From contig CAAGAD010000005.1 of NCBI GenBank assembly GCA_900767715.1, positions 83,697 through 147,696 on the forward strand: 64,000 nt of DNA. Direction: 5' to 3'. The position numbers were made by a program, and so were the translations under genes. This stretch comes from Clostridia bacterium. Lineage in GTDB: Bacteria > Bacillota > Clostridia > Christensenellales > UBA1242. Under the pieces are notes generated by a model that had not been told where the DNA came from, ran no database searches, and was given only the letters and a program-made list of their open reading frames with translations. Positions 6,482-54,278 of the stretch are shown here, one piece after another (the first letter of the stretch is position 1; each line of letters begins with the position of its first letter).

Positions 6482-6503
6482 AAATCCAAAAGTGGAGGAA
6501 ACT

Positions 6504-16911: not shown

Positions 16912-17011
16912 AAGACGCAAAATTTGTGTCTTTTTTTATTTTTATCGTCAAAATGCTTGCTAATTTTTAATATAATTGGTTAAAATAATAACGAAATGCA
17001 AGGAGGTGAAT

Positions 17012-19821: not shown

Positions 19822-19850
19822 TTGACACTAGGGTCGGTTAAGTGTATAAT
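19822..19850 (+). promoter_or_regulatory. str-operon promoter
   Basis: Consensus TTGACA (19822-19827), 17-nt spacer, TATAAT (19845-19850), preceded by TG. Confidence 0.65.
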
Positions 19851-19923
19851 AACTCTGTTATATAGTGAAATATGCTGCTTTGCACTATGTAAAGAGGTTG
19901 CAAAAATTTTACAAGGAGGAAAT

Positions 19924-20295
19924 ATGCCTACAATTAATCAGTTGGTAAGAAAGCCTAGAAAGAAGCAAACAGTTAAGAGTAAATCAGAGTTGTTGAAGGC
20001 TTGCCCACAAAAACGTGGTGTGTGCCTTTCAGTTACTACTACTACACCTAAAAAACCTAACTCAGCAATGCGTAAGATTGCGCGTGTAAAACTTTCAAAC
20101 AAGGCTGAGACTACATGCTATATCCCAGGCGAAGGACACAACTTGCAAGAGCACAGTGTCGTACTCGTTCGTGGTGGTAAAGTGAAAGACTTGCCAGGCG
20201 TACGTTATCACATTGTTCGTGGTTCTTTGGATACTGCGGGTGTTGCTAAACGTAAACAAGGTAGAAGTCGTTACGGCGCTAAGAAATCTAAATAA
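19924..20295 (+). CDS. rpsL: 30S ribosomal protein S12
   Basis: [13 protein letters not shown]... after the AAGGAGG RBS. The track's 5' extension contains the promoter. Confidence 0.97.
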
Positions 20296-22900: not shown

Positions 22901-23041
22901 TTTTTGACAAATTTTGTAATATAACGAGCAAAGTTGTCTAGTTTGGGCGGAAAATAACTCGTCAAAATAATGGCAATTTTGCTTGACAATATTATAGAAA
23001 ATGTATATAGTTTAATTATAAATTCTAGGAGGATTAATATT

Positions 23042-24235
23042 ATGGCAAGAGCCAAGTTTGAAAGAACTAAGCCACACGTTAATATTGGTACTATTGGTCA
23101 CGTTGACCACGGCAAAACTACTTTGACCGCTGCTATCACTAAGTACCTTTCATTGGCAGGTTTGGCAGAAAGCAGATCTTATGATCAAATCGACAATACC
23201 CCAGAAGAAAAAGCTCGTGGTATTACAATTAACACTTCACACGTTGAATACGAAACAGCAACTCGTCACTACGCACACGTTGACTGCCCAGGACACGCAG
23301 ATTATGTAAAGAACATGATTACTGGTGCTGCTCAAATGGACGGCGCAATCCTAGTAGTTGCTGCTACTGATGGTCCAATGCCTCAAACTCGTGAGCACAT
23401 CGTGCTTGCTCGTCAGGTTGGCGTTCCATACATCGTAGTATTTATGAACAAATGTGACCAAGTTGACGACCCAGAGTTGTTGGATTTGGTTGAAATGGAA
23501 ATCCGTGATTTGTTGAGCACTTATGGTTTCCCTGGTGATACAACTCCGGTTATCCGTGGTAGCGCATTGTTGGCTTTGAACTGCAACGACGCTAACGCTC
23601 CTGAAATGGCTTGCATCAAAGAATTGATGGATGCTGTTGACACTTACATTCAAGAACCACAACGTCCTACTGACCAACCATTCTTGATGCCAGTTGAAGA
23701 AGTATACACTATCACTGGTCGTGGTACTGTTGCTACTGGTCGTGTTGAACGTGGCGTTTTGAAACTCGGTGAAGAAATCGAGTTGGTTGGTATCAAACCT
23801 ACACGTAAAGTTGTAGTTACTGGTATCGAAATGTTCCGTAAATCTTTGGACGAAGCACGCGCTGGTGATAACGCTGGTATCTTGCTCCGTGGTATTCAAA
23901 GAAACGAAATCGAACGTGGACAAGTTTTGGCTAAAACTGGTTCAATTCACCCACACACTAAGTTCAAAGCACAAGTTTATGTTTTGAAGAAAGAAGAAGG
24001 TGGCCGTCACACTCCATTCTTCAATGGTTACCGTCCACAATTCTACTTCCGTACTACTGATATTACTGGTTCAATCAAATTGCCAGAAGGCGTTGAAATG
24101 GTTATGCCTGGTGATAACATCACTATGGACGTTGAACTTATCAACCCAGTTGCAATCGAAAAAGGTCTCCGCTTCGCTATTCGTGAAGGTGGTAGAACTG
24201 TTGGTTCTGGTATCGTATCAGAAATCGAAGAATAA
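23042..24235 (+). CDS. tuf: elongation factor Tu
   Basis: [55 protein letters not shown] box at 22983 suggests an internal promoter. Confidence 0.97.
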
Positions 24236-24401: not shown

Positions 24402-25337
24402 ATGAATAAAAGAGTATTATTGACCGCACTGTGCACGACGGCGTTGCTCGTTCCAGTGGCTGCGGGATTCGCTGGTTGTAAAAAAGATAACGGCTTGAAT
24501 ATCAATGCCAAAGATGTGTACGCGCTTTCCGCATCTGCTAGTGCTAATTATTTGCATCATTTGGACGGAACAAAGGCAACGAAGAGCGTTGCAAGTTTGT
24601 CGCTGGAAGTAGCGAAAACACGTCCATCAGCAATCACAGACACGAATGTGACTGGTATGACAAATTGTTTGGCTATGTTTGATAACTTTATTCAAGGTGG
24701 CGGTGTCAATCAAAATACCAAGAAGAACGATGAAATGGGCGACCTAGGTGCTTATACATTCAAAATGACCATTTCTACACCATCTGGCAATGAATCTATG
24801 ACTATGTATTACAATGAAACCGAAACGGAAACAGAACGCAAAATTGAAGACGAGAAAGAAGAAGTTGAAGTTTCGTCCAAACTTGTTGGTGTTTTGGTAT
24901 TTGGTGACAGTCAGTATGACGTGACTGGCGAACGTGAATTTGAGAGCGAAGGCGATGAAACCGAAGCGTCTATCGAATTTACGACCAAAAGCAAGGTTAA
25001 TCCATTGAACTACATTGTAGTATCTCAATCAGTTGAAAACGAAACCGGCGAAACCGAAATTGAATATGAATACAAAATTTATCGTAATGGCAAACTTGTT
25101 CAAAAGACCGAAACCGAAATTGAAAATGAAAACGACAAGTTTGAACTTGAATTCAAATTCAAAAACGGCACGACATTAGAAAAAACCATTTACAAAATGT
25201 ACAAAGGTTCGGCTGATAATTCTTTCGTAATCAAATACACGATCGACGGCACGACCGATACAATCAACGTTGTTAGAACCGCAACTGGCTACACTTTCAC
25301 ATACACAAATGGTTATGTTGAAGAAGTCAAAGCATAA
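24402..25337 (+). CDS. lipoprotein, E/T-rich beta-type
   Basis: Signal peptide with lipobox AGFAG-C. AAAGGAG RBS. Alternating E-x-E strand-like repeats. Confidence 0.75.
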   Translation: MNKRVLLTALCTTALLVPVAAGFAGCKKDNGLNINAKDVYALSASASANYLHHLDGTKATKSVASLSLEVAKTRPSAITDTNVTGMTNCLAMFDNFIQGGGVNQNTKKNDEMGDLGAYTFKMTISTPSGNESMTMYYNETETETERKIEDEKEEVEVSSKLVGVLVFGDSQYDVTGEREFESEGDETEASIEFTTKSKVNPLNYIVVSQSVENETGETEIEYEYKIYRNGKLVQKTETEIENENDKFELEFKFKNGTTLEKTIYKMYKGSADNSFVIKYTIDGTTDTINVVRTATGYTFTYTNGYVEEVKA

Positions 25338-25394
25338 TTAATGCTGTTATAACTTTTACAGTTACTTGCCTATAACAATCACAAGGAGTATCGT

Positions 25395-26129
25395 ATGAAA
25401 AAGAGAAATTGGATAAAAAGTCTGGCGATCGCGATATGTTTAATTATTCCGGCATTGTTGCTATCAGCGTGCGGAGAAGGTGGCTACATTCCACCTGAAA
25501 CTAGGTACGCATGGGGCAGAACATTCACCTATCAAGGCGCATCGTTCAACGACTATTTGACTATTGGCGGAAACAATGGCACGCCAAGGGGCAAACTTTT
25601 AAAAGATGAATACACCAAAGGCAACTTGGATTTGGCAAACGCATTTATAAATGGAGTAGCGGTTGATTTATCGCAATATAGTGACTTGTCTGCAGATGCA
25701 TTCTTCCAGCACCTTATCAGTATGATGGAATCCAGATTGCACACCATGTGTGACGGCATAACTATTGTGGTCAGCACAGAAGAAGAACTTACTGTTACAG
25801 TCAACAAGAAACCATATAAATTGGTTGAAACTTCCGTAGGATCAAACTATTTCACATTGATTGACGAATCCGCTGTCGGTGGCGCTATTTTATCATGGGG
25901 CAATATGTCTTCGCTTTTGTTGAATAGTAGTGGTGACGGTCAAGAAGTGAACTATGGTCTAGACATTTCCGTTTTCGATGAAAAAATAAACGCTTATGAC
26001 AGAATTTCTACCATTGATGTTACAATTCCGACATTCAAGATTGTCAACGATGAAACGGCTGTATTAATCGACAACAAGTATAGCACTTTATCAATTAGTC
26101 TAAAACCATATTTTAACGAAGCAGTTTAA
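25395..26129 (+). CDS. lipoprotein, paralog A of a tandem pair
   Basis: Lipobox LLSAC. The mature region shares PETRYAWGRTF(T/S)YQG ... (K/T)PYFNE(A/V)V with the next gene. Confidence 0.8.
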   Translation: MKKRNWIKSLAIAICLIIPALLLSACGEGGYIPPETRYAWGRTFTYQGASFNDYLTIGGNNGTPRGKLLKDEYTKGNLDLANAFINGVAVDLSQYSDLSADAFFQHLISMMESRLHTMCDGITIVVSTEEELTVTVNKKPYKLVETSVGSNYFTLIDESAVGGAILSWGNMSSLLLNSSGDGQEVNYGLDISVFDEKINAYDRISTIDVTIPTFKIVNDETAVLIDNKYSTLSISLKPYFNEAV

Positions 26130-26232
26130 ATAGAATAAAAATAGTAAAAGGAAGTTTTATGAAAAAGTTTTCTAGTTTTTTGTTGGCGATATGCTTTTTA
26201 GTTCCGCTAGCGTTGGTTTTGACGGCTTGTGG
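26129..26232 (+). repeat. lipoprotein 5' cassette copy 1 (5'UTR + RBS + signal peptide + lipobox)
   Basis: Hand alignment to 27841-27944 gives 97 of 104 identical positions with no gaps. Confidence 0.85.
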
Positions 26233-26872
26233 TAAAGACGCTCCCGAAACAAGATACGCGTGGGGAAGGACGTTTAGTTATCAGGGCACTGTTATGCACA
26301 ATTTTTACTCTTATGGTGGTAATAACGGCACTGAAAATGGTCAACTCGTGAAGAGCGAATTTAAAAAGAGCAATCTTGATTTGGCAAAAGTGAAAATCAA
26401 TAACGTAACCACTGATTTGTCCGCGTTCTCAAATCTTTCTGCCGACCAATTTTTGCAGGAGATTACTAAACGGGCGAAAGCAGAAATGCAATCATTGTAC
26501 GGCAATATCACTATAAAAGTTGGCACGGAAGAAGAATGCAATGTGACTATCAACGGTAAAGTTTATAAACTGCAAAAAACTGAATTTGACCATAGATACA
26601 ATATTATCGACGAATCCGAATCAGAAACATCTTCAAATAGAGAATGCGGCAATTTAAGTGTAAAACTTTGCCATGACGGTAATAATCAAGACCTAAATTA
26701 TGGGCTTGACATCAGTAAGTACACATTGGACGGCAAAGCGGGTGTTGTGATTAGCTCTGTAACAATCGAGATTCCTACAATAAAAGTTATTGAATATGAA
26801 TCCGCATCGTTTAATGGTACATATTCATATATCACGATTAGCTATACGCCATACTTTAATGAAGTGGTGTAA
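26159..26872 (+). CDS. lipoprotein, paralog B of a tandem pair
   Basis: Lipobox VLTAC. The mature region is homologous to 25395-26129. The 5' end is shared with 27871-28554. Confidence 0.8.
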   Translation: MKKFSSFLLAICFLVPLALVLTACGKDAPETRYAWGRTFSYQGTVMHNFYSYGGNNGTENGQLVKSEFKKSNLDLAKVKINNVTTDLSAFSNLSADQFLQEITKRAKAEMQSLYGNITIKVGTEEECNVTINGKVYKLQKTEFDHRYNIIDESESETSSNRECGNLSVKLCHDGNNQDLNYGLDISKYTLDGKAGVVISSVTIEIPTIKVIEYESASFNGTYSYITISYTPYFNEVV

Positions 26873-27231
26873 GTAGTTACAAAAAAATCCAATTAAATTT
26901 GGATTTTTTTGTTGCTATAGTTGATGGTTGTTTGAGTTTTCAGTTTGCATAAATTGCGCATATTCTTGCGCCAGGGTGGAGAAGCGCTCTCCAAGTAGGG
27001 ATTAACATGCCTCGTCTACGCTCATTTCGTGAGTGTGACTGAGATAGGCTTGAAATTATGTGAGCATTGCTTCCTTTTCTGCTGTGGACCCGAATACAGA
27101 ACGAATTGGGTTTGGCAAGTGATAAATTTTGTTTTTGCAACATTAAAAATATATCAAATTCGGGTGCAATATTATGCGACATATGTTATAATGTTCATAT
27201 AAAATTGCAAGGTTGAGTTTATAATTTGTGA

Positions 27232-27333
27232 CAATATGTAATAGCAAATGCAGTTGAGTTTTTATTAAGCGACAAGGCAAGTTTTATTACTGGTCATATT
27301 TTAACCGTTGATGGCGGATTTAGTTTAATATAA
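27232..27333 (+). pseudogene. 3' remnant of a short-chain dehydrogenase/reductase gene
   Basis: Translates to QYVIANAVEFLLSDKASFITGHILTVDGGFSLI*, the classic SDR C-terminus. An in-frame TGA lies immediately upstream, and there is no start codon or Rossmann region. Confidence 0.7.
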
Positions 27334-27360
27334 AATTATAAACAAAATATTGGAGGAAAT

Positions 27361-27736
27361 ATGGCAAATATAAAAGATGTACACCAATTAGCATTGAAAC
27401 TAGGACTATTTCAAAAACAAATTACGATATAGACATCAAAGATTTGATGTATTCGTTTGAGAACGGACAAAACTCCATTGAGTGCAATGCTTCCTATCTT
27501 GCTGGCGAAAGTTTGAATGTTGTTGCTGATTTTATTAAGCAAACAACATTAATAATACTAAGGATATGCGTAAAAACATTGAAGCAATCATCGATTCGTA
27601 TTCTAGCCTACACACTGGTGCGGAACTTGATGCCAAGCGTTTAGCATATATGAAAGACAAGTTACCACTTTTGTGTCAAGAGGTGGTAAGCAAATTGCCT
27701 GAGTCAATTTCGACAAAGCATAGTGAAAGAGTTTAA
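27361..27736 (+). pseudogene. frameshifted small gene (three frame segments)
   Basis: GGAGG RBS plus ATG 27361 gives 23 codons and then TAG. Reading continues in a second frame (DIKDLMYSFENGQNSIE...) and a third (MRKNIEAIIDSYSSLHTGAELDAKRLAYMKDKL...). A terminator hairpin lies at about 27743-27771. Confidence 0.55.
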
Positions 27737-27840
27737 TAACGAAAAATCCAAGATTAGTCTTGGATTTTTTGTGCTTTGTGACGAATTTTGGCGAATAATT
27801 TTTTTTGCATAATTATTAGTAAAAAAGCAAAACTAATTTT

Positions 27841-27944
27841 AATAGAATAAAAATAGTAAAAGGAAGTGTTATGAAAAAGATTTTTAGTTTTTTGTTGGCG
27901 ATATGCTTTTTAGTTCCGCTAGCGGTCGTAATGACGGCTTGTGG
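27841..27944 (+). repeat. lipoprotein 5' cassette copy 2
   Basis: Hand alignment to 26129-26232 gives 97 of 104 identical positions. Similarity ends at the Cys+1/+2 codons. Confidence 0.85.
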
Positions 27945-28554
27945 AGAGAATGAAGTCGTGGTGAGTGTGGCAACGATTGAAGAATTGATGACGGCTGTTG
28001 ACGGCGACAACGATGTCATCAAGTTGACTGAAGATATGGAAGCGACCAGCGCGATTGTCGTGAAACGCAAAGTCACGTTTGACTTAAACGGCAAGACGCT
28101 CACGGGCGATGGCGATTATGGCGTGATATACACACAAGGCGACGCGGAAGTCACAATCACGGGCGACGGCAAAATTGTGGCAAAGGAAAGCGCCGACCAT
28201 TATGCAATGGTTATTTGGGCAAAGGATAACTCAAAAGTAATGATTGAAAACGGCACGTTTACGCAGTCTATCACTGGAACCGACTCGCAGTATGATATGA
28301 TCTATATCACGGAAAGTGCTCAGTTGACAATCGAAGGCGGCAAATTTGATTGCCACACACCAAAGTGGACGCTCAATATTCAAGACAAAGATGCTACAAC
28401 TGCCAAATTTATCGTTAAAGGTGGCGAATTTAAGTCTTACGACCCTGCAAACGTGATAACCGAACCAAAGGACTCGAATGTGACGAGTTTCTTGCCAGAG
28501 GGTTATAAATCCACCTACAACAAGACTACACAATATTACACAGTTAATAAATAA
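27871..28554 (+). CDS. lipoprotein, probable beta-helix-type repeat protein
   Basis: Lipobox VMTAC. Repeated G-x-I/V strand pattern (TLTGDGDYGVIYTQGDAEVTITGDGKIVAK...MIENGTFTQ...TIEGGKFD...IVKGGEFK). Terminator GCCGATTTCGGC plus T-run. Confidence 0.75.
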   Translation: MKKIFSFLLAICFLVPLAVVMTACGENEVVVSVATIEELMTAVDGDNDVIKLTEDMEATSAIVVKRKVTFDLNGKTLTGDGDYGVIYTQGDAEVTITGDGKIVAKESADHYAMVIWAKDNSKVMIENGTFTQSITGTDSQYDMIYITESAQLTIEGGKFDCHTPKWTLNIQDKDATTAKFIVKGGEFKSYDPANVITEPKDSNVTSFLPEGYKSTYNKTTQYYTVNK

Positions 28555-29243: not shown

Positions 29244-29329
29244 TGGTGCCGAAGGTGGGACTTGAACCCACATGAAGTTGCCCTCGCAAGATTTTGAGTC
29301 TTGTGCGTCTGCCATTTCGCCACTTCGGC
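29244..29329 (-). tRNA. tRNA-Leu (anticodon CAA), long variable arm, encoded CCA
   Basis: The reverse complement reads GCCGAAGTGGCGAAATGGCAGACGCACAAGACTCAAAATCTTGCGAGGGCAACTTCATGTGGGTTCAAGTCCCACCTTCGGCACCA. Acceptor GCCGAAG/CTTCGGC, anticodon loop CT-CAA-AA, T-loop GGTTCAAGTCC. Confidence 0.9.
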
Positions 29330-39694: not shown

Positions 39695-40156
39695 GTGGAA
39701 AACATTTGTCAAAACAAACGCGCATCATTCGATTACGAACTTTTGGACAGATACGAGGCTGGCGTTGTTTTGACTGGCGACGAGATTAAGTCGGTGCGTG
39801 CTGGCAGTATGTCTTTGAATGACAGTTTTTGCCTTGTGCGAAATGGTCAAGTGATTTTGAAGAACGCATACATCAAACCATACACCAATGCGTACAGTGG
39901 CTACCAAGGTAAGCACGACGCTCGTCAAGACAGAGTGCTACTTTTGAACAAATATGAGATTAAGCAAATCAAGAATGCAATTGAGCAAAAAGTACTCACA
40001 ATAGTTCCAACGCGTGCATACTTTGTTAAGCATCTTGTCAAGGTGGAAATCGCAGTCGCACGTGGCAAAAAACTTTTCAACAAAAAGGACAGCATAAAAG
40101 AAAAAGACATTGCTCGTTCAAGCCAGCGCGCATTGGCAGATATGGGGATGAAATAG
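39695..40156 (+). CDS. smpB: SsrA-binding protein
   Basis: GTG start 5 nt after AGGAG, and a TGCTATAAT extended -10 upstream. NKRASFDYELLDRYEAGVVLTGDEIKSVR. Confidence 0.9.
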   Translation: MENICQNKRASFDYELLDRYEAGVVLTGDEIKSVRAGSMSLNDSFCLVRNGQVILKNAYIKPYTNAYSGYQGKHDARQDRVLLLNKYEIKQIKNAIEQKVLTIVPTRAYFVKHLVKVEIAVARGKKLFNKKDSIKEKDIARSSQRALADMGMK

Positions 40157-40487
40157 TTTCGACAGTGTTGGTTAGGTTAGAATACGCACGTAGTAGTAGG
40201 CGCTACTATAAAAACCAAATCGTTTAATAAACGCAAACAATAATAATGTAGCCGTTGCTGCCTAGTCAGCCGGCCGTTGACCTACTTGCACCGAAAGGGT
40301 AGCCATCAACGTCATAATTTCGGTGAACGGACGCGTTCGATTTCTCTAAAACGTGTCGGCATTTAGAGAATAGTTTGGTACAAGTCGTTAGCAGACTTCA
40401 CCAAGCGAAATAGATTGCTAACTAAACGTGTAGGGTATTCAGCAGATTCAATATTGGACATGGGTGCAACTCCCATCATCTCCACCA
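40144..40487 (+). ncRNA. ssrA: tmRNA (ssrA)
   Basis: 5' GGGGATG pairs with 3' CATCTCC-A-CCA and includes a G3:U pair. T-arm ATGGGTGCAACTCCCAT. Tag ORF GCA AAC AAT AAT AAT GTA GCC GTT GCT GCC TAG (40233-40265) = ANNNNVAVAA*. It lies directly after smpB. Confidence 0.88.
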
Positions 40488-41954: not shown

Positions 41955-43331
41955 ATGTTTTGGAATGCATTTGTTAATGTTTTGGCCATAATTGCGATTA
42001 TAGTTGTCGCAGCATTTGTGATGATTTTTCTCGGCGATTTGCTAATCAGCATTATTGACGGCAAGAGTGGCATTTTCTTTAAGCGAAACAAGAAAGCGAA
42101 AGTGGAAGAATTGGAAGATGAGGACGATAAGTCTAACTATGCAACACGCGAAGAGTTGGCAAAGTTGCAAGAGATGTATCGCAACAAGGAAACTCAATCT
42201 GCACCAGTTGTAGTTGTTCAGCCACAACCTGTTCAAAAGAACGTAACAGACGACTACCTAAACAACGCAGTGCCAGTTGACTACGATTTGGCTAAGAAAG
42301 AAGAAGAAATTATGAATGCCAAGAAAAATAGACTTTTGGTTCCAAAGGAGGAAGAAAAAGTTGAGAGTGGCATTACGAAAGACGAAATTCTTGACCAAGT
42401 TGATAAAGTGGCTGACGACATCTTGTCTAACTACGAAGCAGAGAAGACCAACAAGCAAAAGATTGACGATTACGCAAAAGAATTGGAAAACTACAAGATT
42501 GAGACATCTCTTGACGACGTAAACGAAGAAGAGTCGAATGCAAACACCGACAACAGCAATAATGACAATAATGACAATAATGACAATAATGACAATGATG
42601 ACAACGGTGACGATGATGGCGCAATTTTGGAACCAGCACCAGCACCAGAAAAGATTGTTGAGAAAGAAGTTGTCAAAGAAGTAATGGTTGACAATCCTGA
42701 AATTGTTGAAGAAAACAAAAAATTGCAACAACAACTTGAAGAACTCCGCAACGCATTGCAAGAAGCAAATAATCGTGCTAGCGAACTCGAACAAGAACAC
42801 GAAGAAGAAAAAGACGCCGGTCCAATGATTTACACAACTGTTGAAGACTGCGAAGCCCGTCTTGAAATCTTGGAAGAGCGTTTGAGAGTGGCAAAGAAAG
42901 AACTCAAAATCAATGACAAAGAGTTCAAACCATTGTTCAAGGTTCGTAAGAATCTCAACAAATACAAAGAAAAACTTCGTCGTAAAGAAGTCAGTGTAGC
43001 ACGTCAAAAGGTCGTTTTGTATGGTGTAAACAACTATGTGGATATCGACAAAGACCGTGCAGAAAAGTTGGCTAACGACATTGAATTGCTTGACGGACTC
43101 CGTTTGAGCGTTCAAGATTGTGAAAACGTGGTTGAAGCAAGCAAGGACCGTTATCCAATCTTGGAACAAACTAACCGTTTGTTGAAGACTAACATTGCAG
43201 ACTTGGAACACGACATTGAAACAACAACACAAGTTTTGGAAGCATTGAAGGCTGACACTCTCGTTGACCTTAACGACAACGGCATTGATGACCGCGCCGA
43301 AGACAATGACGACGACAAAAACAATAAATAA
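41955..43331 (+). CDS. membrane-anchored coiled-coil protein with acidic N/D repeat
   Basis: AAGGAGAG RBS. N-terminal TM segment (VLAIIAIIVVAAFVMIFLG), long E/K-rich heptad-like regions, and an NNDNNDNNDNND tract. Confidence 0.75.
   Translation: MFWNAFVNVLAIIAIIVVAAFVMIFLGDLLISIIDGKSGIFFKRNKKAKVEELEDEDDKSNYATREELAKLQEMYRNKETQSAPVVVVQPQPVQKNVTDDYLNNAVPVDYDLAKKEEEIMNAKKNRLLVPKEEEKVESGITKDEILDQVDKVADDILSNYEAEKTNKQKIDDYAKELENYKIETSLDDVNEEESNANTDNSNNDNNDNNDNNDNDDNGDDDGAILEPAPAPEKIVEKEVVKEVMVDNPEIVEENKKLQQQLEELRNALQEANNRASELEQEHEEEKDAGPMIYTTVEDCEARLEILEERLRVAKKELKINDKEFKPLFKVRKNLNKYKEKLRRKEVSVARQKVVLYGVNNYVDIDKDRAEKLANDIELLDGLRLSVQDCENVVEASKDRYPILEQTNRLLKTNIADLEHDIETTTQVLEALKADTLVDLNDNGIDDRAEDNDDDKNNK
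42558..42593 (+). repeat. in-frame 9-bp tandem repeat (AATAATGAC x4) with degenerate copies to ~42620
   Basis: Four perfect head-to-tail copies counted directly, followed by AATGATGAC, AACGGTGAC and GATGATGGC. Confidence 0.9.
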
Positions 43332-43385
43332 AAATAAGCACTAATTTAGTGCTTTTTTTATTTGAATATGCTAAAATAAAATCGT

Positions 43386-44507
43386 ATGACGATAAAAACA
43401 AAGGAAAATAACGGCAAAAAACGTGCTACGATACTGACTTTTTCCGTACTGCTGATAATTTTTACGGCAGTATTATGTTTTTCTTCGCTAATTACACAAG
43501 GAATTAGAAACACATTGTTTAATCACAATGTGTTGGAAGATAACGACAGTTTGCGTGTGCATTTTATAGATGTAGGGCAGGGCGACTGCATTGCAATCAA
43601 TTTGCCAGACGGCAAAACAATGCTTATTGACGCCGGACCGAATAGCGCCACAAAGGACGTCAGCGATTATCTACTGACAAATGTGGTGAACCACCGCTCA
43701 AACAGAAAATTAGATTATGTCGTTTTGACCCATAGTGACGCCGACCATATTGGTGGAATGAGTAAGATATTGACCATATTCAAAATTGGCACGATTTTCC
43801 GTCCAGCAATTGCCAGCATGGTCGATGACGACTATGGTGTGGCAAGTTGCTCGTCAACTAGTGACACGTATGCCAGCGTCATCACACGTGCAAAGCAGTT
43901 GCAAGAGACGGGCACAACTGTTATCACCACTGCACGCGGTCTTACGATTGAGGGCTCGAACTATACAATCGAGTTTTTGTCGCCGTTTAAGGACACTTAC
44001 ACCACAACCAACGAATATTCACCTTATATATTGTTGAACTGTTTTGGTAAATCGTTTTTGTTCACGGGCGACGCCACCAAAGAAAACGAAACTGAACTGA
44101 TGACCTATGAGCCAAGTTTGGATATTGACGTCTTGAAAGTGGCTCACCACGGCTCGAATTCATCTACGTCTAGCGAGTTTATGGCATACATCAGCCCCAA
44201 GTATGCTGTTATTTCGGTTGGAAAGAATAACTCATTCGGTCACCCAACTAGCGAAACGCTGGCAAATATTCGCTCTGTCGTTAATGATGACAACGTTTTA
44301 ATGACTAGCGCGGTGAGCAATGTTAGTTTCGTAATAGGTGACGGATACGAGTTTTCATATTTGACCGGCGCGATTTACACAACAATCAACGTTAGTTGGG
44401 AATTGATAGTCATTATTGCGGTCGGCGTGGACGCTCTTTGTGTCTGTATTATCATTATTACTTGCGTTCGACAAAAGGCGACAAAAAATGGCGGTAATAA
44501 AAGTTGA
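43386..44507 (+). CDS. ComEC/Rec2-related metallo-beta-lactamase-fold membrane protein
   Basis: N- and C-terminal TM segments. HFIDVGQGDCI, LTHSDADHIGG, KVAHHGSNSS, GKNNSFGHP. Confidence 0.75.
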   Translation: MTIKTKENNGKKRATILTFSVLLIIFTAVLCFSSLITQGIRNTLFNHNVLEDNDSLRVHFIDVGQGDCIAINLPDGKTMLIDAGPNSATKDVSDYLLTNVVNHRSNRKLDYVVLTHSDADHIGGMSKILTIFKIGTIFRPAIASMVDDDYGVASCSSTSDTYASVITRAKQLQETGTTVITTARGLTIEGSNYTIEFLSPFKDTYTTTNEYSPYILLNCFGKSFLFTGDATKENETELMTYEPSLDIDVLKVAHHGSNSSTSSEFMAYISPKYAVISVGKNNSFGHPTSETLANIRSVVNDDNVLMTSAVSNVSFVIGDGYEFSYLTGAIYTTINVSWELIVIIAVGVDALCVCIIIITCVRQKATKNGGNKS

Positions 44508-44586
44508 TTAATGTATATAACTTTGTTAAAATTGGTAATTGTTTGTAAAATTAATAAGAACAATTGCTCCCATTCAGGAGGTAAAG

Positions 44587-45069
44587 TTGGATAAAAACGT
44601 ACTTATTATTGGACTGGCAGAAGAAAATGTAAAACGCATTGCCGTAGCGCTGGCTGAAAAACTGAATCGTATGTATATGGACGTCGATGAATTGATTGAA
44701 TATCAACTTGTAAACAAGCAAGGGTTAAAAAAAGTTGGTCGCGAATATTTCGAAAAAATACAAAAAGGTTGTATTCGTCAAGCGTGCGATTGCGTGAATA
44801 CGGTGATCACAATTTCCACAGATTTGTATTTATTTGCTGATTATGCCGAAATTTTGTCCAAATTTTATGTTATTTTCGTTAATTTTACAAAAAATGATTA
44901 TTTATTCGCCATAGAAAGTTGCCCAAAAGAAAGACAATTAGAATTGAAAAATAGAGTAGTGGTGTTTGACGAATTAAATGCTCAACTGCGCAAGCGTGCA
45001 AATCTGTGCATAAATTATTCGACAGACGACAATGTGGTGGATAAAATTTTGATTAAACTTTGTAAATAG
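44587..45069 (+). CDS. shikimate kinase-like protein with degenerate P-loop
   Basis: TTG start after AGGAGG. NVLIIGLAEENVKRIAVALAEKLNRMYMDVDELIE aligns with AroK N(I/V)xLxGxxGxGKSTxGxxLAxxL...D.D..IE, but the GxGKS/T residues are replaced. Confidence 0.6.
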   Translation: MDKNVLIIGLAEENVKRIAVALAEKLNRMYMDVDELIEYQLVNKQGLKKVGREYFEKIQKGCIRQACDCVNTVITISTDLYLFADYAEILSKFYVIFVNFTKNDYLFAIESCPKERQLELKNRVVVFDELNAQLRKRANLCINYSTDDNVVDKILIKLCK

Positions 45070-45071
45070 TT

Positions 45072-46895
45072 ATGATGGATAAGCAAAAGATATTGACCCA
45101 ATTAGAATTGTTAGCACTAGGGCGTGCGGAATTGATGAGCGAAAGCGAACTAGACATAGCAGAGTTAAATTCTCTCTATGTTTTGTTTAGGTGGCATTTT
45201 AAATCTAGTAGTAACGCAAATCAATGGTTTAACAGAGATAGACTCATTATGCCTAACGCGGACAATTCCAGTTTGGTGACCACGCTATTTACCTTTGGTT
45301 TTTTAGATTACGACAGCACTTTCTTGCCATTTTCACCCACCGAACTAAAAAGTTGCGTGGACTTTATCAATGAGTACAACTCTGGGTGTGAAATGATAGG
45401 CAATGCGATAGGAATGGCAATCGCGGAAACCGTCTTTGACGAGAAGTTCAGCGCTAAAGATTTGCCTGTATGCAGTCACCGAACATTTGCGATGATTAAT
45501 GATGATATTATCGACGAAAACGCGTTAAAGGTGAGCGAGTATGCCGTTAAATTTGCACTAGATAAAATTACGATAATCTGCACCACAAAAGACTTTCATT
45601 TATACGATAAATTTCACGATTTGGGTTGGGACGTCCATCGCGTTGATGATGTCACAGATATAAATCTCTTGAAAGAGAGTTTTGACCAGTCTGTGCAAAA
45701 TAAATTGAAGCCCTCGATTATTTTCGTAAAAACTAACAAAATTTCAGTAAAAAACAAGCGAAATTTGCAACACGAACTAAAAATTGATAAAAATCATTTA
45801 TTGTCTAATGACTTTTACCAAATTGTAGATAAAAATAGAGCGATATTCAATGATGAATATATTAAGAGTAAAATTCAGTTAATTGACTACGCACACATAC
45901 TTCCAAGCACGGCAAAAGAATTGAAACTCGTTCAGTCGGGAAAGTTGCTAAACTTTGACACAGTCTTCTATGATTACGATATTTCTACATATGAATGCTT
46001 CATCGTATTCTTAAAAGAGTATCTGGCGAAGAATAGGGCGACGGTTATTTTGTCTAACGAGAAAGACCAGTTAGAATTGGGCGTAGACAACAAGTATTAT
46101 GGCGCGAAAACTCGTTATGGTACAAAAATAATAGTCGATGAGCCATTCATTATCATCAACTCGATCGCCAACGGATTAGCAATGCATCAGCATATGACCA
46201 CCTTTGTCATCACCAGCACAAGCGAACTAGATTGCGCGGGATTAAGAGTGACAGCCAGCCAGCATTTAGGCGTAAAATATATGGTGTTGGACGACAGCAG
46301 TTTGACGGGTGGCAAACAACATTCGGTCGAAGGGTATCTAAATATTTCAAGGCAAAAACGTATGCCAACAAGCGCGGTTTTCAAGCCTTGTGATTCGGCG
46401 GAAATGTATATGTGTTTCGACCACATCTTGCGTTGGCAGGGCGTAGGATTGATGTTCGTCACAACCGGGCAGTTGAATTGTATAAACAAGTCAACTTTCA
46501 GGGTTAATTGGGGCGCATATTTTATGCAGAATAATGTGAAGAACAGGAACGGAATTATTTATAGTTCGGGGCTGGAAATGCGCAACAGTTTGCGTGCCCG
46601 AAAACGACTAATAAAATATGGCTATAACTTCTTAACGGTTAGTGTTCCGTGTGTTGAAGTATTCAAAAAACAGACCCCACATTATTGCTCCCAACTCAAA
46701 CCAAATGATGACGATATTGTTCTCATTGTTGATAGTTTGGCGAACAAAAATTTGAGTGTCTTTTATGGTAAAAACACCACCATTATAAACGTGGAAGAAA
46801 CGGACGACATCAACTCCGCAAAGCAAAAATTCTCGATAGATAATATCGTAAAAACCATTATCGATTTGTGCAAAAAAGAAATGAAAAATAGTTAA
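45072..46895 (+). CDS. transketolase-family protein with degenerate ThDP-binding/catalytic motifs
   Basis: Collinear with Tkt: NRDRLIMPNAD (Tkt DRDRFVLSNGH), IGNAIGMAIAE (GQGIANAVGMAIAE), FAMINDDIIDEN (FMGDGCMMEG), SIANGLAMH (AIANGISLH), VLDDSSLTGGKQHS (THDSIGLGEDGPTHQP), FKPCDSAE (WRPCDQVE). Confidence 0.65.
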   Translation: MMDKQKILTQLELLALGRAELMSESELDIAELNSLYVLFRWHFKSSSNANQWFNRDRLIMPNADNSSLVTTLFTFGFLDYDSTFLPFSPTELKSCVDFINEYNSGCEMIGNAIGMAIAETVFDEKFSAKDLPVCSHRTFAMINDDIIDENALKVSEYAVKFALDKITIICTTKDFHLYDKFHDLGWDVHRVDDVTDINLLKESFDQSVQNKLKPSIIFVKTNKISVKNKRNLQHELKIDKNHLLSNDFYQIVDKNRAIFNDEYIKSKIQLIDYAHILPSTAKELKLVQSGKLLNFDTVFYDYDISTYECFIVFLKEYLAKNRATVILSNEKDQLELGVDNKYYGAKTRYGTKIIVDEPFIIINSIANGLAMHQHMTTFVITSTSELDCAGLRVTASQHLGVKYMVLDDSSLTGGKQHSVEGYLNISRQKRMPTSAVFKPCDSAEMYMCFDHILRWQGVGLMFVTTGQLNCINKSTFRVNWGAYFMQNNVKNRNGIIYSSGLEMRNSLRARKRLIKYGYNFLTVSVPCVEVFKKQTPHYCSQLKPNDDDIVLIVDSLANKNLSVFYGKNTTIINVEETDDINSAKQKFSIDNIVKTIIDLCKKEMKNS

Positions 46896-47178
46896 AAAAT
46901 AAGCGTAAAAATAAAATAAAAAAGCGACATTATAGTCGCTTTTTATTGTGTGGTTTTTCACCACTTGTGAAGTATTTGCTTCACATTATAAATTTGTGTA
47001 AAAATTTTATAAATATTCATAAAAATTGCATATTTTTAACATAAAAATGCAATTTTTACGCCTTTTTTCGTATATTTGATAAAATTATTTGAAATATATT
47101 TAATTTGAATTTGTCAATAAATTATTTAATTTTTTATTAATCAAATTAACAAATGATTAATTAATAAATATTTAAATT

Positions 47179-50100
47179 TTATTTAATAAATTTTTTGTAA
47201 TTTTCGCGTCTTGCGATGGCGTCTTGTTCGCACAATTTTTGCAAGATTTCTGCTTGCTCTGGTTCGGCTCTTCTTAACGCCGAGAAACGATTTTCAGTTT
47301 GCAAAAATTCTTGCATTGTTATGGTTGGGTCAGGTGAGTCAATTTGCATTTTGTGCTCGGTGCGTGGGTCGTATCTAAACAATGTCAAATAGCCCGACGC
47401 AACGGCGAGTCTTTGGTGCAGATTTGCGTTCTTCATATCTATGCCGTGATTGATACAAGGCGCGTATGCAAACACGATACTTGGACCGTCAAAACTCTCG
47501 GCTTCGACGAGTGCGCGCATCAGTTGATTTGGGTCAGCGCCAAGGCAAACATTCGCTACATAAACATCGCCATAAGTCATCGCAATTGATGGCAAATCTT
47601 TTTTCTTGGTTTGCTTGCCGTCCGCACTAAATTTTGCCATTGCTCCGCGTGGAGTTGACTTGCTAGTTTGACCACCCGTGTTGCTGTAAACTTCGGTGTC
47701 GAGTACGAGAATATTTACGTTCTCGCCCGACGCTAAAACGTGGTCGAGTCCGCCAAATCCAATGTCATAAGCCCAGCCGTCACCACCTATAATCCAAACG
47801 CTTGGTTTGACTATAAGGTTTGAATTTAAAATCCATTTTTCTTTTGGAGATAGTTTCAATTCTTTTAGTTGTTCATAGCACTTTTCGCTTATGCCCGCGT
47901 CGTCACTGTTGGCAACGAATTTGTCAACAATATTTTTCACGTCAGGCGAGAGTGCAGTTTCATTTTTTAGTCGGTTGATGAAACAATTTCTTGCATTCTT
48001 GCGACCCAGTGCAATCCCGAGCCCGTACTCCGCATTGTCCTCGAACAAACTGTTCGCCCAAGCAGGCCCGCGTCCGCTTTCGTCTTCTGCGTATGGGCAA
48101 CTAGGGAAGGACGCTGAGTAAATGCTACTGCAACCCGTCGCGTTGGCAATAATCATACGATTGCCGAATAGTTGGCTGACAATTTTTAGATACGGCGTTT
48201 CGCCACAACCAGCGCACGCACCACTAAACTCGAAATAACTCTTTTCAAACTGACTGCCTTTGACGCTTGTTCGGTCATAAGGATTGACAGATTTAATTTT
48301 GTCAAATGAGTTGTATTTTTTCAGTTCGTTATCCACGCACTCGGTGTATGGGCGCATTTGCAAGGCTTTTTGCTTGGCGGGGCAAACTTGTGCGCACAGA
48401 CCACAGCCCGTGCAGTCGAGCGGACTGACTTGCAACACAAACTTTCCGTCCGCGCCGAATGCGTTACGTTGTGCCAGACAACCATCAATCTCTTCGCCGT
48501 TCTTGACGAACTTCGGTCTAATGGCTGAATGTGGACAAACGAATGAACAGCGGTTACATTGAATACAGTTTTCGCTAATCCAGCAAGGAAGTTTGTCTGC
48601 AATTCCGCGCTTCTCCAACTTGGCGGTGTCGGTAGGCATACTTCCGTCCGGATTGAATGCCGAAACCTTAATTTTGTTACCTTGGCAACTAGCGATTGGT
48701 TGCATGATGTTGGTGTAAAATGCGGATTTTTCCTTAGATTTTTGCGTTGTGGCAAACTCTACCTTGTCGTAGTCAATCTTTTGCAAGAGTCCGCGAGCCT
48801 TTTCCAGTGCAGAGATATTGATATTGATGACATCAGCACCTTTCTTGGCTAACGTTTTCATAATCGAGTTTTTCAGTTCGAGCAAAGCAATCTTGGAGTC
48901 GAACTTACCGTTTAGGGCGAAGAAGCCCGCCAGCATAATGTTGTTGATTTTATTATTCAATCCACATTCGTGGGCAAGGGTGGTGGCGTCCAAAGTGTAG
49001 AAATGCACATTTTTGGCTTTGAGCGAGTCAACCAATTCGCGACTTATTGGCGCTTTTGGTGGCATATTCGCCAAAATCACTCCGCCGTCCTTAATATACT
49101 CGCCATAAGGGAACTTATTGACGAACGCCGAGTTGTTTATCATCAAGAAATCCACTTTCGCCGAATTGAAACTGTCAATAATAGGCTTATCGTCCAAACG
49201 AATATGGCTCGTTGTCATACTGCCAGACTTTTTGCTGTCGTATTCAAAATAGCCCTGCGAGTATTTGCCCGTAATCTTGGACAAAATCTTGCCCAACGTT
49301 TTGGACGCCGACACACTGCCATCACTACCAATGCCATAGATACGCACGCAGTATTGACTGTCGTCCGCGATGTATGTGTTCTCGACGGCGAGCGAGTTGC
49401 CCGACAAATCATCGTCAATGCCCACACTGAAACGAACCTTGCCGTCTTTGCGCATATTATCATATACGGCATTAGCCATATTAGCGTCAAATTCCTTACC
49501 GCCTAAACCGTAAATTCCGGCAAACAAGTTGGCTTTGATGCCTTGATTGTGGCAAGCGTTCAAAACCGCATTGTATAGGCTGTCAGCATTCACAAAGTCG
49601 GCATTTCGGTCGAGAATGGTGATATTTTTCACCGTTTTAGGTAAGATTTCAGCAAGACGCTTCTCATCAAATGGCGCAAACAATCTAATCTGCACCACGC
49701 CACACTTTTCACGCTTTTCGCACGCCAAAATGCAACTATTCGTTGATGAACCCAGTGTTACAATCACGTTTTCTGCTTTTGGGTCACCCACATAGTCCAG
49801 CGTGTGATAGTTTTTTCCCGTTAGTTCGTTGATTTGGGTAAGTGCGGAATTGAAATTTTCAATTACATTATTATACGCGGGCGCGCTAGCCATACGGTTT
49901 TGGAAGAACACGTCAGGGTTTTGCGCCGTGCCTTTGCAAATAGGCTTGATAGGGTTGAGCCCAACACTGCGGAAAGCGTCCACAAGGTTTATAGGCAAGA
50001 CAGATTTAATCTCTTCTGGTGTGAATTGGTCAATGGTGTTGAGTTCGTGGCTGGTTCTAAACCCGTCAAAGAACACAACGAATGGTAAACGGCTCTTCAA

Positions 50101-50574
50101 TGCACAAATTTGGGTGGCAAGCGCAAGGTCGTTCACTTCTTGCACACTGTCGCAAGCAACAAAGTTGTACCCAGTTTTTAGGCAAGCGTAGATGTCGCCG
50201 TGGTCGCAGAAGATGTTCAGCGCGTGCGTAGCCACACTGCGCGAAGCCACGTACATAACGTTAGGCAAGTGCTCGCCTGCAATCTTGTACATATTAGGAA
50301 TCATCAACAATAACCCCTGGCTAGATGTAAAGGTGGTGGCGAGTTGTCCACTGGTGAGTGCGCCGTGCATAGCCCCGCTAGCACCCGCTTCGCTCTGCAT
50401 TTCGGTGATGGTCATCGTGTTGCCATATACGTTCGCGACCCCTTCACTGCGCATAAGGTCGCAACTTTCACTCATACTGCTACTAGGCGTAATAGGGTAG
50501 ATAAACGCACTATCATTGCATTGATAGGCGATGTGTGAGGCGGCTGTATTGCCGTCAACTGTGATTCTCTTCAT
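47179..50574 (-). CDS. nifJ: pyruvate:ferredoxin (flavodoxin) oxidoreductase, single-chain
   Basis: About 1,130 aa. Two ferredoxin-type clusters (CIQCNRCSFVCP, CTGCGLCAQVCP) and the ThDP motif GGDGWAYDIGFGGLDH. The second ATG was chosen for spacing from AAGGA. Confidence 0.93.
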   Translation of the reverse strand: MKRITVDGNTAASHIAYQCNDSAFIYPITPSSSMSESCDLMRSEGVANVYGNTMTITEMQSEAGASGAMHGALTSGQLATTFTSSQGLLLMIPNMYKIAGEHLPNVMYVASRSVATHALNIFCDHGDIYACLKTGYNFVACDSVQEVNDLALATQICALKSRLPFVVFFDGFRTSHELNTIDQFTPEEIKSVLPINLVDAFRSVGLNPIKPICKGTAQNPDVFFQNRMASAPAYNNVIENFNSALTQINELTGKNYHTLDYVGDPKAENVIVTLGSSTNSCILACEKREKCGVVQIRLFAPFDEKRLAEILPKTVKNITILDRNADFVNADSLYNAVLNACHNQGIKANLFAGIYGLGGKEFDANMANAVYDNMRKDGKVRFSVGIDDDLSGNSLAVENTYIADDSQYCVRIYGIGSDGSVSASKTLGKILSKITGKYSQGYFEYDSKKSGSMTTSHIRLDDKPIIDSFNSAKVDFLMINNSAFVNKFPYGEYIKDGGVILANMPPKAPISRELVDSLKAKNVHFYTLDATTLAHECGLNNKINNIMLAGFFALNGKFDSKIALLELKNSIMKTLAKKGADVININISALEKARGLLQKIDYDKVEFATTQKSKEKSAFYTNIMQPIASCQGNKIKVSAFNPDGSMPTDTAKLEKRGIADKLPCWISENCIQCNRCSFVCPHSAIRPKFVKNGEEIDGCLAQRNAFGADGKFVLQVSPLDCTGCGLCAQVCPAKQKALQMRPYTECVDNELKKYNSFDKIKSVNPYDRTSVKGSQFEKSYFEFSGACAGCGETPYLKIVSQLFGNRMIIANATGCSSIYSASFPSCPYAEDESGRGPAWANSLFEDNAEYGLGIALGRKNARNCFINRLKNETALSPDVKNIVDKFVANSDDAGISEKCYEQLKELKLSPKEKWILNSNLIVKPSVWIIGGDGWAYDIGFGGLDHVLASGENVNILVLDTEVYSNTGGQTSKSTPRGAMAKFSADGKQTKKKDLPSIAMTYGDVYVANVCLGADPNQLMRALVEAESFDGPSIVFAYAPCINHGIDMKNANLHQRLAVASGYLTLFRYDPRTEHKMQIDSPDPTITMQEFLQTENRFSALRRAEPEQAEILQKLCEQDAIARRENYKKFIK

Positions 50575-50682
50575 AATCATTCCTTATATATGTAAATTCA
50601 TAGTTAAGTGTATATATATTGGCTCAAAAAGTCAAATGTTACAATCGCTTTACGAACTTTTTTTGTTATGTTATAATAAGGT

Positions 50683-53846: not shown

Positions 53847-54278
53847 CTATTTGTCCAACAACTCGTTGCGCTTTTGATAATGTCCGCCGTTGAAACGCGT
53901 GGTGATAAACGTTGCTGTTCTTATCTCGGCAGTAGTCTTGCCAGTCTGTCTAGCGCCAAGGCATAGAACGTTGGCATCATTGTGCATACGTGCCGACTTC
54001 ACCGTCTTTGTGTTGTCGCCAAGCACAGCGCGAATGCCTTTAAATCTGTTGGCTTGCATTGTCATTCCAACGCCCGAACCGCACACCAAAATACCGCGGT
54101 TATCCTTGTCTTGCAACACCTTTTTGCACAAAAGTTTTGCATAAGTGTTGTAGTCGTCATCGCTGACAAACTCTGTCGCACCCACATCGATGGCAGAAAT
54201 GCCAAACTTAGCGAGATATTTCACCAAACTATCTTTTAATTTTAGACCATTGTGGTCGCACCCAATGTAAACTTTCAT
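53847..54278 (-). CDS. rpiB: ribose-5-phosphate isomerase B
   Basis: MKVYIGCDHNG, CGSGVGMTMQANR, NDANVLCLGAR. Confidence 0.9.
   Translation of the reverse strand: MKVYIGCDHNGLKLKDSLVKYLAKFGISAIDVGATEFVSDDDYNTYAKLLCKKVLQDKDNRGILVCGSGVGMTMQANRFKGIRAVLGDNTKTVKSARMHNDANVLCLGARQTGKTTAEIRTATFITTRFNGGHYQKRNELLDK

Follow-up and report, generated by a model that had tools for sequence, protein, structure and literature searches.

Can a bacterial transketolase gene lose nearly every residue on which the enzyme depends and still be kept as an intact gene? The question is raised by a stretch of 64,000 nucleotides from a Clostridia bacterium (contig CAAGAD010000005.1, positions 83,697 to 147,696 of the forward strand), which we refer to as the window. 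It carries two co-directional open reading frames (ORFs), at 44539/44587..45069 and 45072..46895, with 2 nt between them; the first encodes a shikimate-kinase-like (SK-like) and the second a transketolase-like (Tkt-like) protein. Judged from their sequences, both are non-catalytic homologues that have lost the residues for cofactor binding, catalysis and nucleotide binding. Purifying selection acts on both genes today.

An earlier note on this DNA, made from the sequence alone, had described two intact, tightly linked ORFs with a 2-nt gap, as the ORF coordinates bear out, and had placed the start of the SK-like gene at 44587. That coordinate matches a TTG codon preceded by AGGAGG, and in the orthologues L002 and L003 an in-frame stop lies just 5' of this position. 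A consensus scan gave a weak promoter-like site at 44504-44532, upstream of the SK-like gene, and we saw no separate Shine-Dalgarno sequence around the ATG of the Tkt-like gene at 45072. The pair comprises the following features:

44576..44581, plus strand: Shine-Dalgarno sequence AGGAGG, lying 5 nt ahead of the TTG of the SK-like gene (direct sequence reading)
44587..45069, plus strand: predicted SK-like pseudoenzyme, 160 aa, TTG start (Pfam SKI, alignments, ratio of non-synonymous to synonymous substitution rates, dN/dS)
45072..46895, plus strand: predicted Tkt-like pseudoenzyme, 607 aa, ATG start (homology, AlphaFold2/Foldseek, dN/dS, synteny)

Functional residues of the two proteins

Both proteins are genuine homologues of their enzyme families, though the similarity is very weak. 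The 607-aa protein matched Pfam Transketolase_N with 47.6 bits and Transketolase_C_1 with 39.4 bits, while Transket_pyr gave no match. Against the NCBIfam transketolase model TIGR00232 it scored 118 bits (equivalog cut-off 682.25), and its identity to any real transketolase was 19-24%. When 1.84 billion representative proteins were scanned exhaustively with HMMER, only 325 matched at E <= 0.001. AlphaFold2 yielded a model with a predicted local distance difference test (pLDDT) of 83 and a predicted template modelling score (pTM) of 0.86. In Foldseek, this model aligned over its full length with about 50 solved transketolases at template modelling (TM) scores of 0.80-0.85 and 15-19% identity, and every top match in the Protein Data Bank (PDB) was a transketolase. 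The predicted fold is that of a complete three-domain transketolase with PP, Pyr and C-terminal domains. Both window proteins belong to their respective fold superfamilies.

To score function rather than fold, we used 17 residues of E. coli TktA (H26, H66, H100, D155, G156, N185, H261, R358, S385, E411, F434, F437, Y440, H461, D469, H473 and R520), the numbering of which was verified on the E. coli protein (NC_000913.3). Their roles in cofactor binding, catalysis and substrate binding follow the transketolase literature. In an alignment of 159 sequences, canonical transketolases kept 15-17 of these residues and those that we call dead 0-5, with about ten intermediate cases; the Tkt-like protein retained 1/17. 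SGHPG reads SE--SE and SNGHGS reads PNADNS. The thiamine diphosphate (ThDP)/Mg motif GDG-X(25-30)-N is lost, with GDGCMMEG replaced by ND-DIIDEN, N185 by lysine, and the following loop deleted. THDSIGLGEDGPTHQP of TktA corresponds to LDDSSLTGGKQHSVEG. H26, H66, H100, H261, E411 and H473 align with a gap, Asp, a gap, a gap, Phe and Val, respectively, and the substrate residues R358, S385, H461, D469 and R520 with Tyr, a gap, Asp, Lys and Thr. The putative E411 position is Phe both in the window protein and in that of lineage L004, and acidic residues nearby are not conserved. HMMER alignments to PDB transketolases showed the same replacements. Structural blocks persist, namely NRDR, IGNAIGMAIAE, IANGLAMH, KPCD and a C-terminal SxGxE...VSxP. 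The earlier note, which had reported the essential motifs as replaced and NRDR, IGNAIGMAIAE, ANGLAMH and KPCD as retained, was right on both counts when compared with E. coli TktA and PDB transketolases.

The 160-aa protein exceeded the gathering cut-off of Pfam SKI (30.8 versus 22.1 bits), as did its relative in L018 (29.2 bits) and the proteins P0029 (26.9 bits) and P0181 (26.1 bits), so that four independent lineages pass it. Its best NCBIfam match, PRK13947, reached 24.7 bits against an equivalog cut-off of 204. We aligned it with E. coli AroK (NC_000913.3) and PDB shikimate kinases, using published motif definitions (PMC2593004). In these alignments the Walker A sequence GPMGAGKST of AroK is replaced by GLAEENVKR, which lacks the GxxGxGK[ST] pattern, and GGG, the Walker B and shikimate-binding motif, by STD; the earlier note had stated both replacements. 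The arginine of the 'FR' motif aligns with Glu. We take this arginine to be the shikimate-binding one. The preceding segment carries a 10-residue deletion, and part of the shikimate-binding segment is missing. Retained are the size (about 160 aa), the layout of beta1, P-loop position and helix, and DxD, the contact for Mg2+ and shikimate, in the form of DVD, which aligns with DSD in E. coli AroK; its second Asp never varies within the SK-like family. The family also has conserved polar blocks unlike the old motifs: Y-x-D-[VI]-D-x-L-[IV]-[ED]-Y-x-L-V-N-K, YF[ED]K[IV]Q and E-x-[KE]-N-R.

Since the defining residues were tested and found absent, neither window protein is functionally a member of its enzyme family. 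The relics of the former sites are variable. Within the species, the GDG stretch of the Tkt-like protein (residues 142-148) forms a small hotspot of conservative polymorphism, and the P-loop relic of the SK-like protein, GLAEENVKR in the window, reads GLAEFNVKN, GLLDDKRKL, GVLDDKVKS or IFEKTSFKD in other lineages. This is as expected if the sites bind nothing any more. Charge and pI showed no trend between dead and live proteins.

The SK-like family is rare. Among 5.8 billion proteins, a profile search recovered only 6 clusters, a scan of metagenome contigs only two near-identical loci, and a single scan of a genome collection only L002. One further contig of 857 bp (L005) holds the C-terminal half of an SK-like gene at 20-388, 80% identical over 75 aa, followed by unrelated sequence without a Tkt-like gene. 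This contig is too short to interpret and may reflect chimeric assembly or a rearrangement in the strain.

Selection and the order of events

Orthologues of both genes were compared with those of a sister species, L002 (CAKVHC010000002.1, 'uncultured Clostridia bacterium'), a metagenome-assembled genome (MAG) from the Hadza gut. The Tkt-like gene is 83% identical with a dN/dS of 0.047 (YN00; dS is about 2 and saturated) and the SK-like gene 89% identical with a dN/dS of 0.117 (NG86), next to 82-99% identity and 0.01-0.18 for thirteen neighbouring genes. When each domain of the Tkt-like protein was tested alone, dN was far below dS, and the remnant of the Pyr domain (residues 363-480) is 94% identical to that of L002. 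Both genes are also intact in the third lineage, L004 (72-74% identical), against which dN/dS of the SK-like gene was 0.17. There, a gene called as two ORFs looked like a frameshift; we rejected this as decay because the break is a run of N. The 90%-identity cluster of the Tkt-like protein has 90 members, and the 15 that we read were 604-607 aa long, aligned end to end and varied in length only at the C-terminal tail. In total, at least five lineages, diverged down to 43% (SK-like) and about 22% (Tkt-like) identity, carry intact ORFs.

The earlier note had proposed pseudoenzymes kept under selection rather than pseudogenes. Values of dN/dS of about 0.05-0.17 and ORFs intact across three species-level lineages and 15 variants support that proposal, and the comparison of orthologues that it had suggested gave ratios far below 1 in undisrupted frames. 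We consider it very probable that both are selected pseudoenzymes and that the tkt orthologue is among them.

Three features neighbour the pair:

43386..44507, plus strand: protein of the metallo-beta-lactamase (MBL) fold, ComEC C-terminal-like, 373 aa (Pfam Lactamase_B, 69 bits)
46919..46944, no strand assigned: palindromic hairpin with a 10-bp stem, flanked by an A-run and a T-run (consensus scan only)
47179-50580, minus strand: PFOR gene, convergent to the Tkt-like gene

The order MBL(ComEC-like), SK-like, tkt, PFOR (minus strand), truA, rplM, rpsI is a cluster ancestral to a wider clade. Immediately in front of the SK-like gene, the MBL gene is present in L002, L003, L017, L018 (41% identity) and L020 (36%), and is absent from that position in L008. 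The latter, a 71-kb contig with 38% GC that carries the dead Tkt P0033, has the order PGK, iPGM, SecG, RNase R, SmpB, an unnamed gene, a coiled-coil protein, the SK-like gene (160 aa), the Tkt-like gene (with a 4-nt overlap), PFOR (minus strand), TruA, L13 and S9. Between the window and L008, housekeeping neighbours are 58-82% identical, the SK-like proteins 43% and the Tkt-like proteins 21.6-23%. L017 shows the C-terminus of the MBL protein, an SK-like gene (55% identical) and then an N-terminal fragment of a dead Tkt-like gene.

Two loci of more distant relatives carry a live transketolase in the same place. In L018 (26% GC), the MBL gene and an SK-like gene with a destroyed P-loop (IIIFEKTSFKD) are followed by Tkt P0034, which has 17/17 functional residues. 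In L020 (GCA_964457935.1), the MBL gene, a 136-aa SK-like relic and Tkt P0037 (16/17) precede PFOR (minus strand), TruA, L13 and S9. The profile of the SK-like family matched the L018 protein in hhalign with a probability of 96.8% and E 2e-10. The SK-like/Tkt junction measures 2 nt in the window and in L018, a 4-nt overlap in L008 and 31 nt in L020, so the two genes lie 2 nt apart or overlap in three of four deeply diverged lineages compared.

PFOR of the window is 69.5% identical to that of L008 versus 49.8% for L020, and L13 81.5% versus 71.2%; by these identities the window groups with L008, and L020 falls outside. Because the SK-like gene is already dead in front of a live Tkt in L018 and L020, loss of the P-loop from the kinase homologue long preceded the death of the transketolase. 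Read from this gene order, the common ancestor had an SK-like gene that was already dead and a tkt that was still alive; catalysis by the latter was lost later, in the branch or branches leading to the window, L008 and L017. The relic motifs share no derived residues. The position of the Tkt-like gene in the ancestral tkt place identifies it as the lineage's own tkt orthologue and not a spare paralogue. The idea of the earlier note that the pair may have been repurposed together is thus not borne out, nor were the two inactivated together, given the dead SK-like genes in front of live tkt. The shared ancestry in the pentose-phosphate-to-shikimate route is probably less relevant than the long-standing adjacency of the two genes.

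Over long distances, the Tkt-like gene is the fastest-evolving gene of the neighbourhood. The live Tkts of L020 and L018 are 45% identical to each other and 36-41% to the E. coli enzyme; the dead orthologues of the window and L008 are no closer to each other than either is to a live Tkt. With Kimura-corrected identities and PFOR as a clock, the rate of the Tkt-like gene between the window and L002 predicts about 40% identity between the window and L008, and the observed distance is roughly twice the predicted one. These comparisons suggest that, once catalysis had died, the gene went through a burst of relaxed or adaptive change before coming under the constraint seen today.

Other dead transketolases and the surrounding genes

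Dead transketolases were not limited to this clade. A census of the 150 best matches of the exhaustive scan, a sample biased to divergent sequences from which no frequency can be derived, contained at least 27 further clusters, defined at 50% identity, whose full-length Tkt homologues retain only 0-5/17 residues. These are P0060, P0067, P0071, P0133, P0021, P0033, P0055, P0057, P0076, P0094, P0097, P0115, P0145, P0160, P0166, P0039, P0061, P0074, P0100, P0124, P0130, P0038, P0066, P0090, P0086, P0131 and P0144. In all-against-all BLASTP, most dead Tkts matched live Tkts better than each other. We rejected a single family or origin on account of this closeness to live Tkts and of the differing gene contexts, and the dead Tkts appear, from sequence comparison, to have arisen independently. 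As far as sequences tell, death of tkt in situ with the ORF retained is recurrent.

Among the loci of dead Tkts that we fetched (L009-L014), GC was computed for four, with 24-27% in L009, L011 and L013 and 47% in L010. Dead Tkts lie in the following stretches of L011-L014:

L013, 5904-10451: dead-Tkt stretch
L014, 1643-6190: dead-Tkt stretch
L011, 642-2928: dead-Tkt stretch
L012, 414-2700: dead-Tkt stretch

In these four loci, a 138-aa protein without a Pfam match follows the dead Tkts P0067 and P0039, and its copies in L011 and L013 are 46% identical. A LexA gene lies a few genes upstream of the dead Tkt in L013 and L014. This type of context presumably resembles the lexA...tkt-sirA arrangement of Bacillus, which would mean that dead tkt orthologues persist in situ in other low-GC lineages as well.

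Back in the window, the adjacent PFOR keeps its ThDP motif (GGDGWAYDIGFGGLDH...SNTGG) along with a TPP_enzyme_C match, and is 94% conserved relative to L002. ThDP is thus in use in this cell, and its absence cannot be the reason why the Tkt-like protein lost the ThDP site. The hairpin at 46919-46944, between the convergent Tkt-like and PFOR genes, is likely a bidirectional terminator, going by its sequence. The MBL protein at 43386-44507 matched NCBIfam ComEC_Rec2 with 140 bits at model positions 401-646, the C-terminal part, and has hydrophobic stretches at both ends that probably span the membrane. Its metal motif is THSDADH. It also matched MBL proteins of defence systems, namely LmuA (103 bits), DRT RTasMBL and Avs1a. 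PADLOC returned generic MBL matches for this protein and none for the SK-like and Tkt-like proteins, and we rejected membership of the pair in a defence system on that ground. Further upstream, 41955-43331 encodes an acidic, coiled-coil-like protein of 458 aa with a hydrophobic N-terminal stretch and a NDNNDNNDNNDN repeat, without a family match. A homologue with 56% identity sits in the equivalent position of L008, and a terminator-like hairpin (43336-43354) directly follows the window gene.

The cluster members of the window proteins 45072-46892 and 20810-22897 occur on contigs of 0.86-0.94 Mb, which suggests that this gut lineage has a small genome of about 0.9-1 Mb. With 90 members in the Tkt-like cluster, the organism is present in many samples. 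ORF-poor stretches near the pair hold small called genes (SecG, a helix-turn-helix protein and a PemK toxin pair) and no obvious wrecks. Three very large ORFs, at 27-6398 (2123 aa), 6492-9614 (1040 aa) and 16976-19651 (891 aa), had no Pfam match at E <= 1e-5, and the same applies to several mid-sized ORFs at 24402-28554 and to many other window proteins. A tmRNA with the tag peptide ANNNNVAVAA (40144-40487) directly follows smpB, and there is a single tRNA-Leu(CAA) at 29244-29329 on the minus strand. The longest ORFs for ribosomal protein S12 (19822-20295) and EF-Tu (22970-24235) begin about 50 and about 33 codons before their Pfam domains. These early starts are probably upstream choices of the ORF caller and not real extensions.

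What the pair may do

Why do both genes survive? In the reading that we favour and hold to be rather likely, the two proteins share a non-catalytic function that predates the death of the transketolase and is the reason why both persist. The ancestral SK-like protein and the then active Tkt would already have shared a role that needed no kinase chemistry, be it in a complex or as regulators, scaffolds or ligand sensors, with the tight or overlapping gene junctions ensuring co-expression. Once the transketolase reaction was no longer needed in a gut lineage with a probably small genome, catalysis would have been lost and the Tkt-like protein remodelled in a burst of fast evolution, while the second, non-catalytic function held both ORFs under selection. 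The products would now be non-enzymatic cytoplasmic proteins, most likely working together. The Tkt-like protein would probably still be a dimer, in which the former active-site cleft no longer binds ThDP. That the two act together as a complex is a narrower proposal, which we put forward tentatively.

Several points weigh against this reading. The evidence on the pair comes from genes and predicted structures, and the Tkt-like model is biased toward the transketolase fold since its input alignment was dominated by real transketolases. The AlphaFold2 model of the SK-like protein is poor (pLDDT 54) and found no significant match in Foldseek, the top non-significant ones being adenylate and shikimate kinases; hhalign against E. 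coli AroK reached only E 0.002. Given the poor model, assignment of the SK-like fold rests on weak sequence matches. The 136-aa relic of L020 is linked to the family only via L018 (BLASTP E 6e-8 in a tiny database), the family profile itself gave no direct match to it, and at the 31-nt junction of L020 tkt has its own Shine-Dalgarno-like sequence. None of the three dead-Tkt contexts inspected elsewhere (P0055, P0039 and P0067) includes an SK-like neighbour, so retention of a dead Tkt needs no such partner in general. Finally, the search for a second, active tkt covered only the window and the fetched loci.

There is next to no chance that the two are plain pseudogenes yet to gain a stop or frameshift. 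The catalytic motifs are all lost and the Tkt-like gene evolves faster than its neighbours over long distances, but dN/dS lies at 0.05-0.17 while synonymous sites are saturated, at least five lineages keep intact ORFs, all 15 variants read are near full length and a canonical Shine-Dalgarno sequence is kept. We rejected this explanation on dN/dS and the long-term conservation of the ORFs. It is also distinctly improbable that one or both proteins are neofunctionalised enzymes with a new chemistry that requires neither ThDP nor an ATP P-loop. Strong purifying selection, the retained DxD of the kinase fold and newly conserved polar blocks, in the SK-like protein and, in the Tkt-like protein, FKPCDSAEMYMCFDH, would fit such an enzyme. 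However, the relic active-site positions are not fixed and differ among the window, L004, L008 and L017, the GDG stretch is polymorphic even within the species, and the dead Tkts of the window and L008 have so little sequence in common (about 22% identity) that a single new active site conserved in both is difficult to envisage.

Alternatively, the Tkt-like protein might be a regulatory pseudo-subunit that forms heterodimers with, or titrates, an active Tkt (full-length or split into N and C parts) encoded elsewhere, comparable to what has been proposed for human TKTL1 and TKT. The blocks that are still Tkt-like (NRDR, IGNAIGMAIAE, IANGLAMH and KPCD) sit in the PP and Pyr domains, which we take to form the Tkt dimer interface. 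Furthermore, RpiB (53847-54278) is strongly conserved, with a dN/dS of about 0.03, a hint that pentose-phosphate interconversion still matters. We regard this as improbable nonetheless, as the gene occupies the ancestral tkt position and is an orthologue, not a duplicate. Within the 64-kb window and the fetched loci, which cover little of a genome of probably about 0.9 Mb, neither a second tkt nor any aro gene was present. A little more room, though still not much, must be left for unrelated functions whose adjacency is merely historical, for instance with the Tkt-like protein as a structural component and the SK-like protein as a partner of the MBL/ComEC-like membrane nuclease. On its upstream side, the SK-like gene has a more constant partner in the MBL gene (L002, L017, L018 and L020), dead Tkts of other lineages do without an SK-like neighbour, and the two proteins differ strongly in rate (43% versus 23% identity between the window and L008). 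Against mere history stands the 2-nt gap or 4-nt overlap conserved in three of four deep lineages, even in L008 where the MBL gene is missing. A shared, non-catalytic function older than the death of tkt remains the explanation that we prefer.

Pseudoenzymes are well documented in eukaryotes and rarely characterised in bacteria. With the bacterial transketolase (EC 2.2.1.1; TktA, TIGR00232; PF00456 + PF02779 + PF22613/PF02780), the Tkt-like protein shares gene position, predicted fold and structural blocks; it differs in its single functional residue of 17, the missing GDG...N and the deleted loop after the N185 position. The SK-like protein shares the SKI match, size, layout and DxD with AroK/AroL (EC 2.7.1.71; PF01202), whereas the Walker A of its family is G-[LV]-x-[DE]-x-x-x-K-x or wholly lost. 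The closest parallels are eukaryotic paralogues. Plant SKL1 and SKL2 are SK homologues that lack SK activity, do not conserve the shikimate-binding and catalytic sites and have taken on a new role outside catalysis (PMC2593004; PMC12203367). Like them, the SK-like protein is an SK homologue that has lost its sites and is retained under selection; unlike them, it is bacterial, tkt-linked and without a P-loop, whereas SKL1 and SKL2 are plant gene duplicates and the ATP-binding sites of SKL1 persist. Human TKT with a deletion of 38 residues, used as a model of TKTL1, had no enzymatic activity (PMC3485151). The catalytic competence of TKTL1 itself is disputed (PMC3485151; PMC6334435), and non-canonical and regulatory roles have been proposed for it. 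TKTL1 is a paralogue beside an active TKT, whereas the Tkt-like protein is the orthologue itself with nearly every functional residue replaced. TKTL1 keeps most of its active-site residues. In the searchable literature we found no bacterial pseudo-transketolase, no P-loop-less shikimate-kinase homologue and no SK-like/Tkt gene pair.

Homology-based annotation would probably label the two genes 'transketolase' and 'shikimate kinase', and such labels would create false pentose-phosphate and shikimate capabilities in metabolic reconstructions of gut MAGs. The many other dead Tkts suggest that this annotation error is widespread. For the study of pseudoenzymes the locus is an unusually clean case, since the dead gene is the tkt orthologue, live and dead versions occupy matching neighbourhoods of related genomes, and synteny reveals the order of inactivation. 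A retained function, if real, would point to a non-catalytic role of transketolase and its small partner that standard annotation would miss. A bolder possibility, which we regard as doubtful, is that Tkt in this clade, perhaps in low-GC Firmicutes generally, has an old second function free of catalysis. This function, exercised here with a P-loop-less partner of the SK fold, would keep the gene selected after the death of the enzyme. If true, it would account for the full-length dead tkt kept in situ by at least 27 lineages that appear to be independent, and the pair of the window would be a natural separation-of-function allele that exposes a moonlighting role of a core metabolic enzyme.

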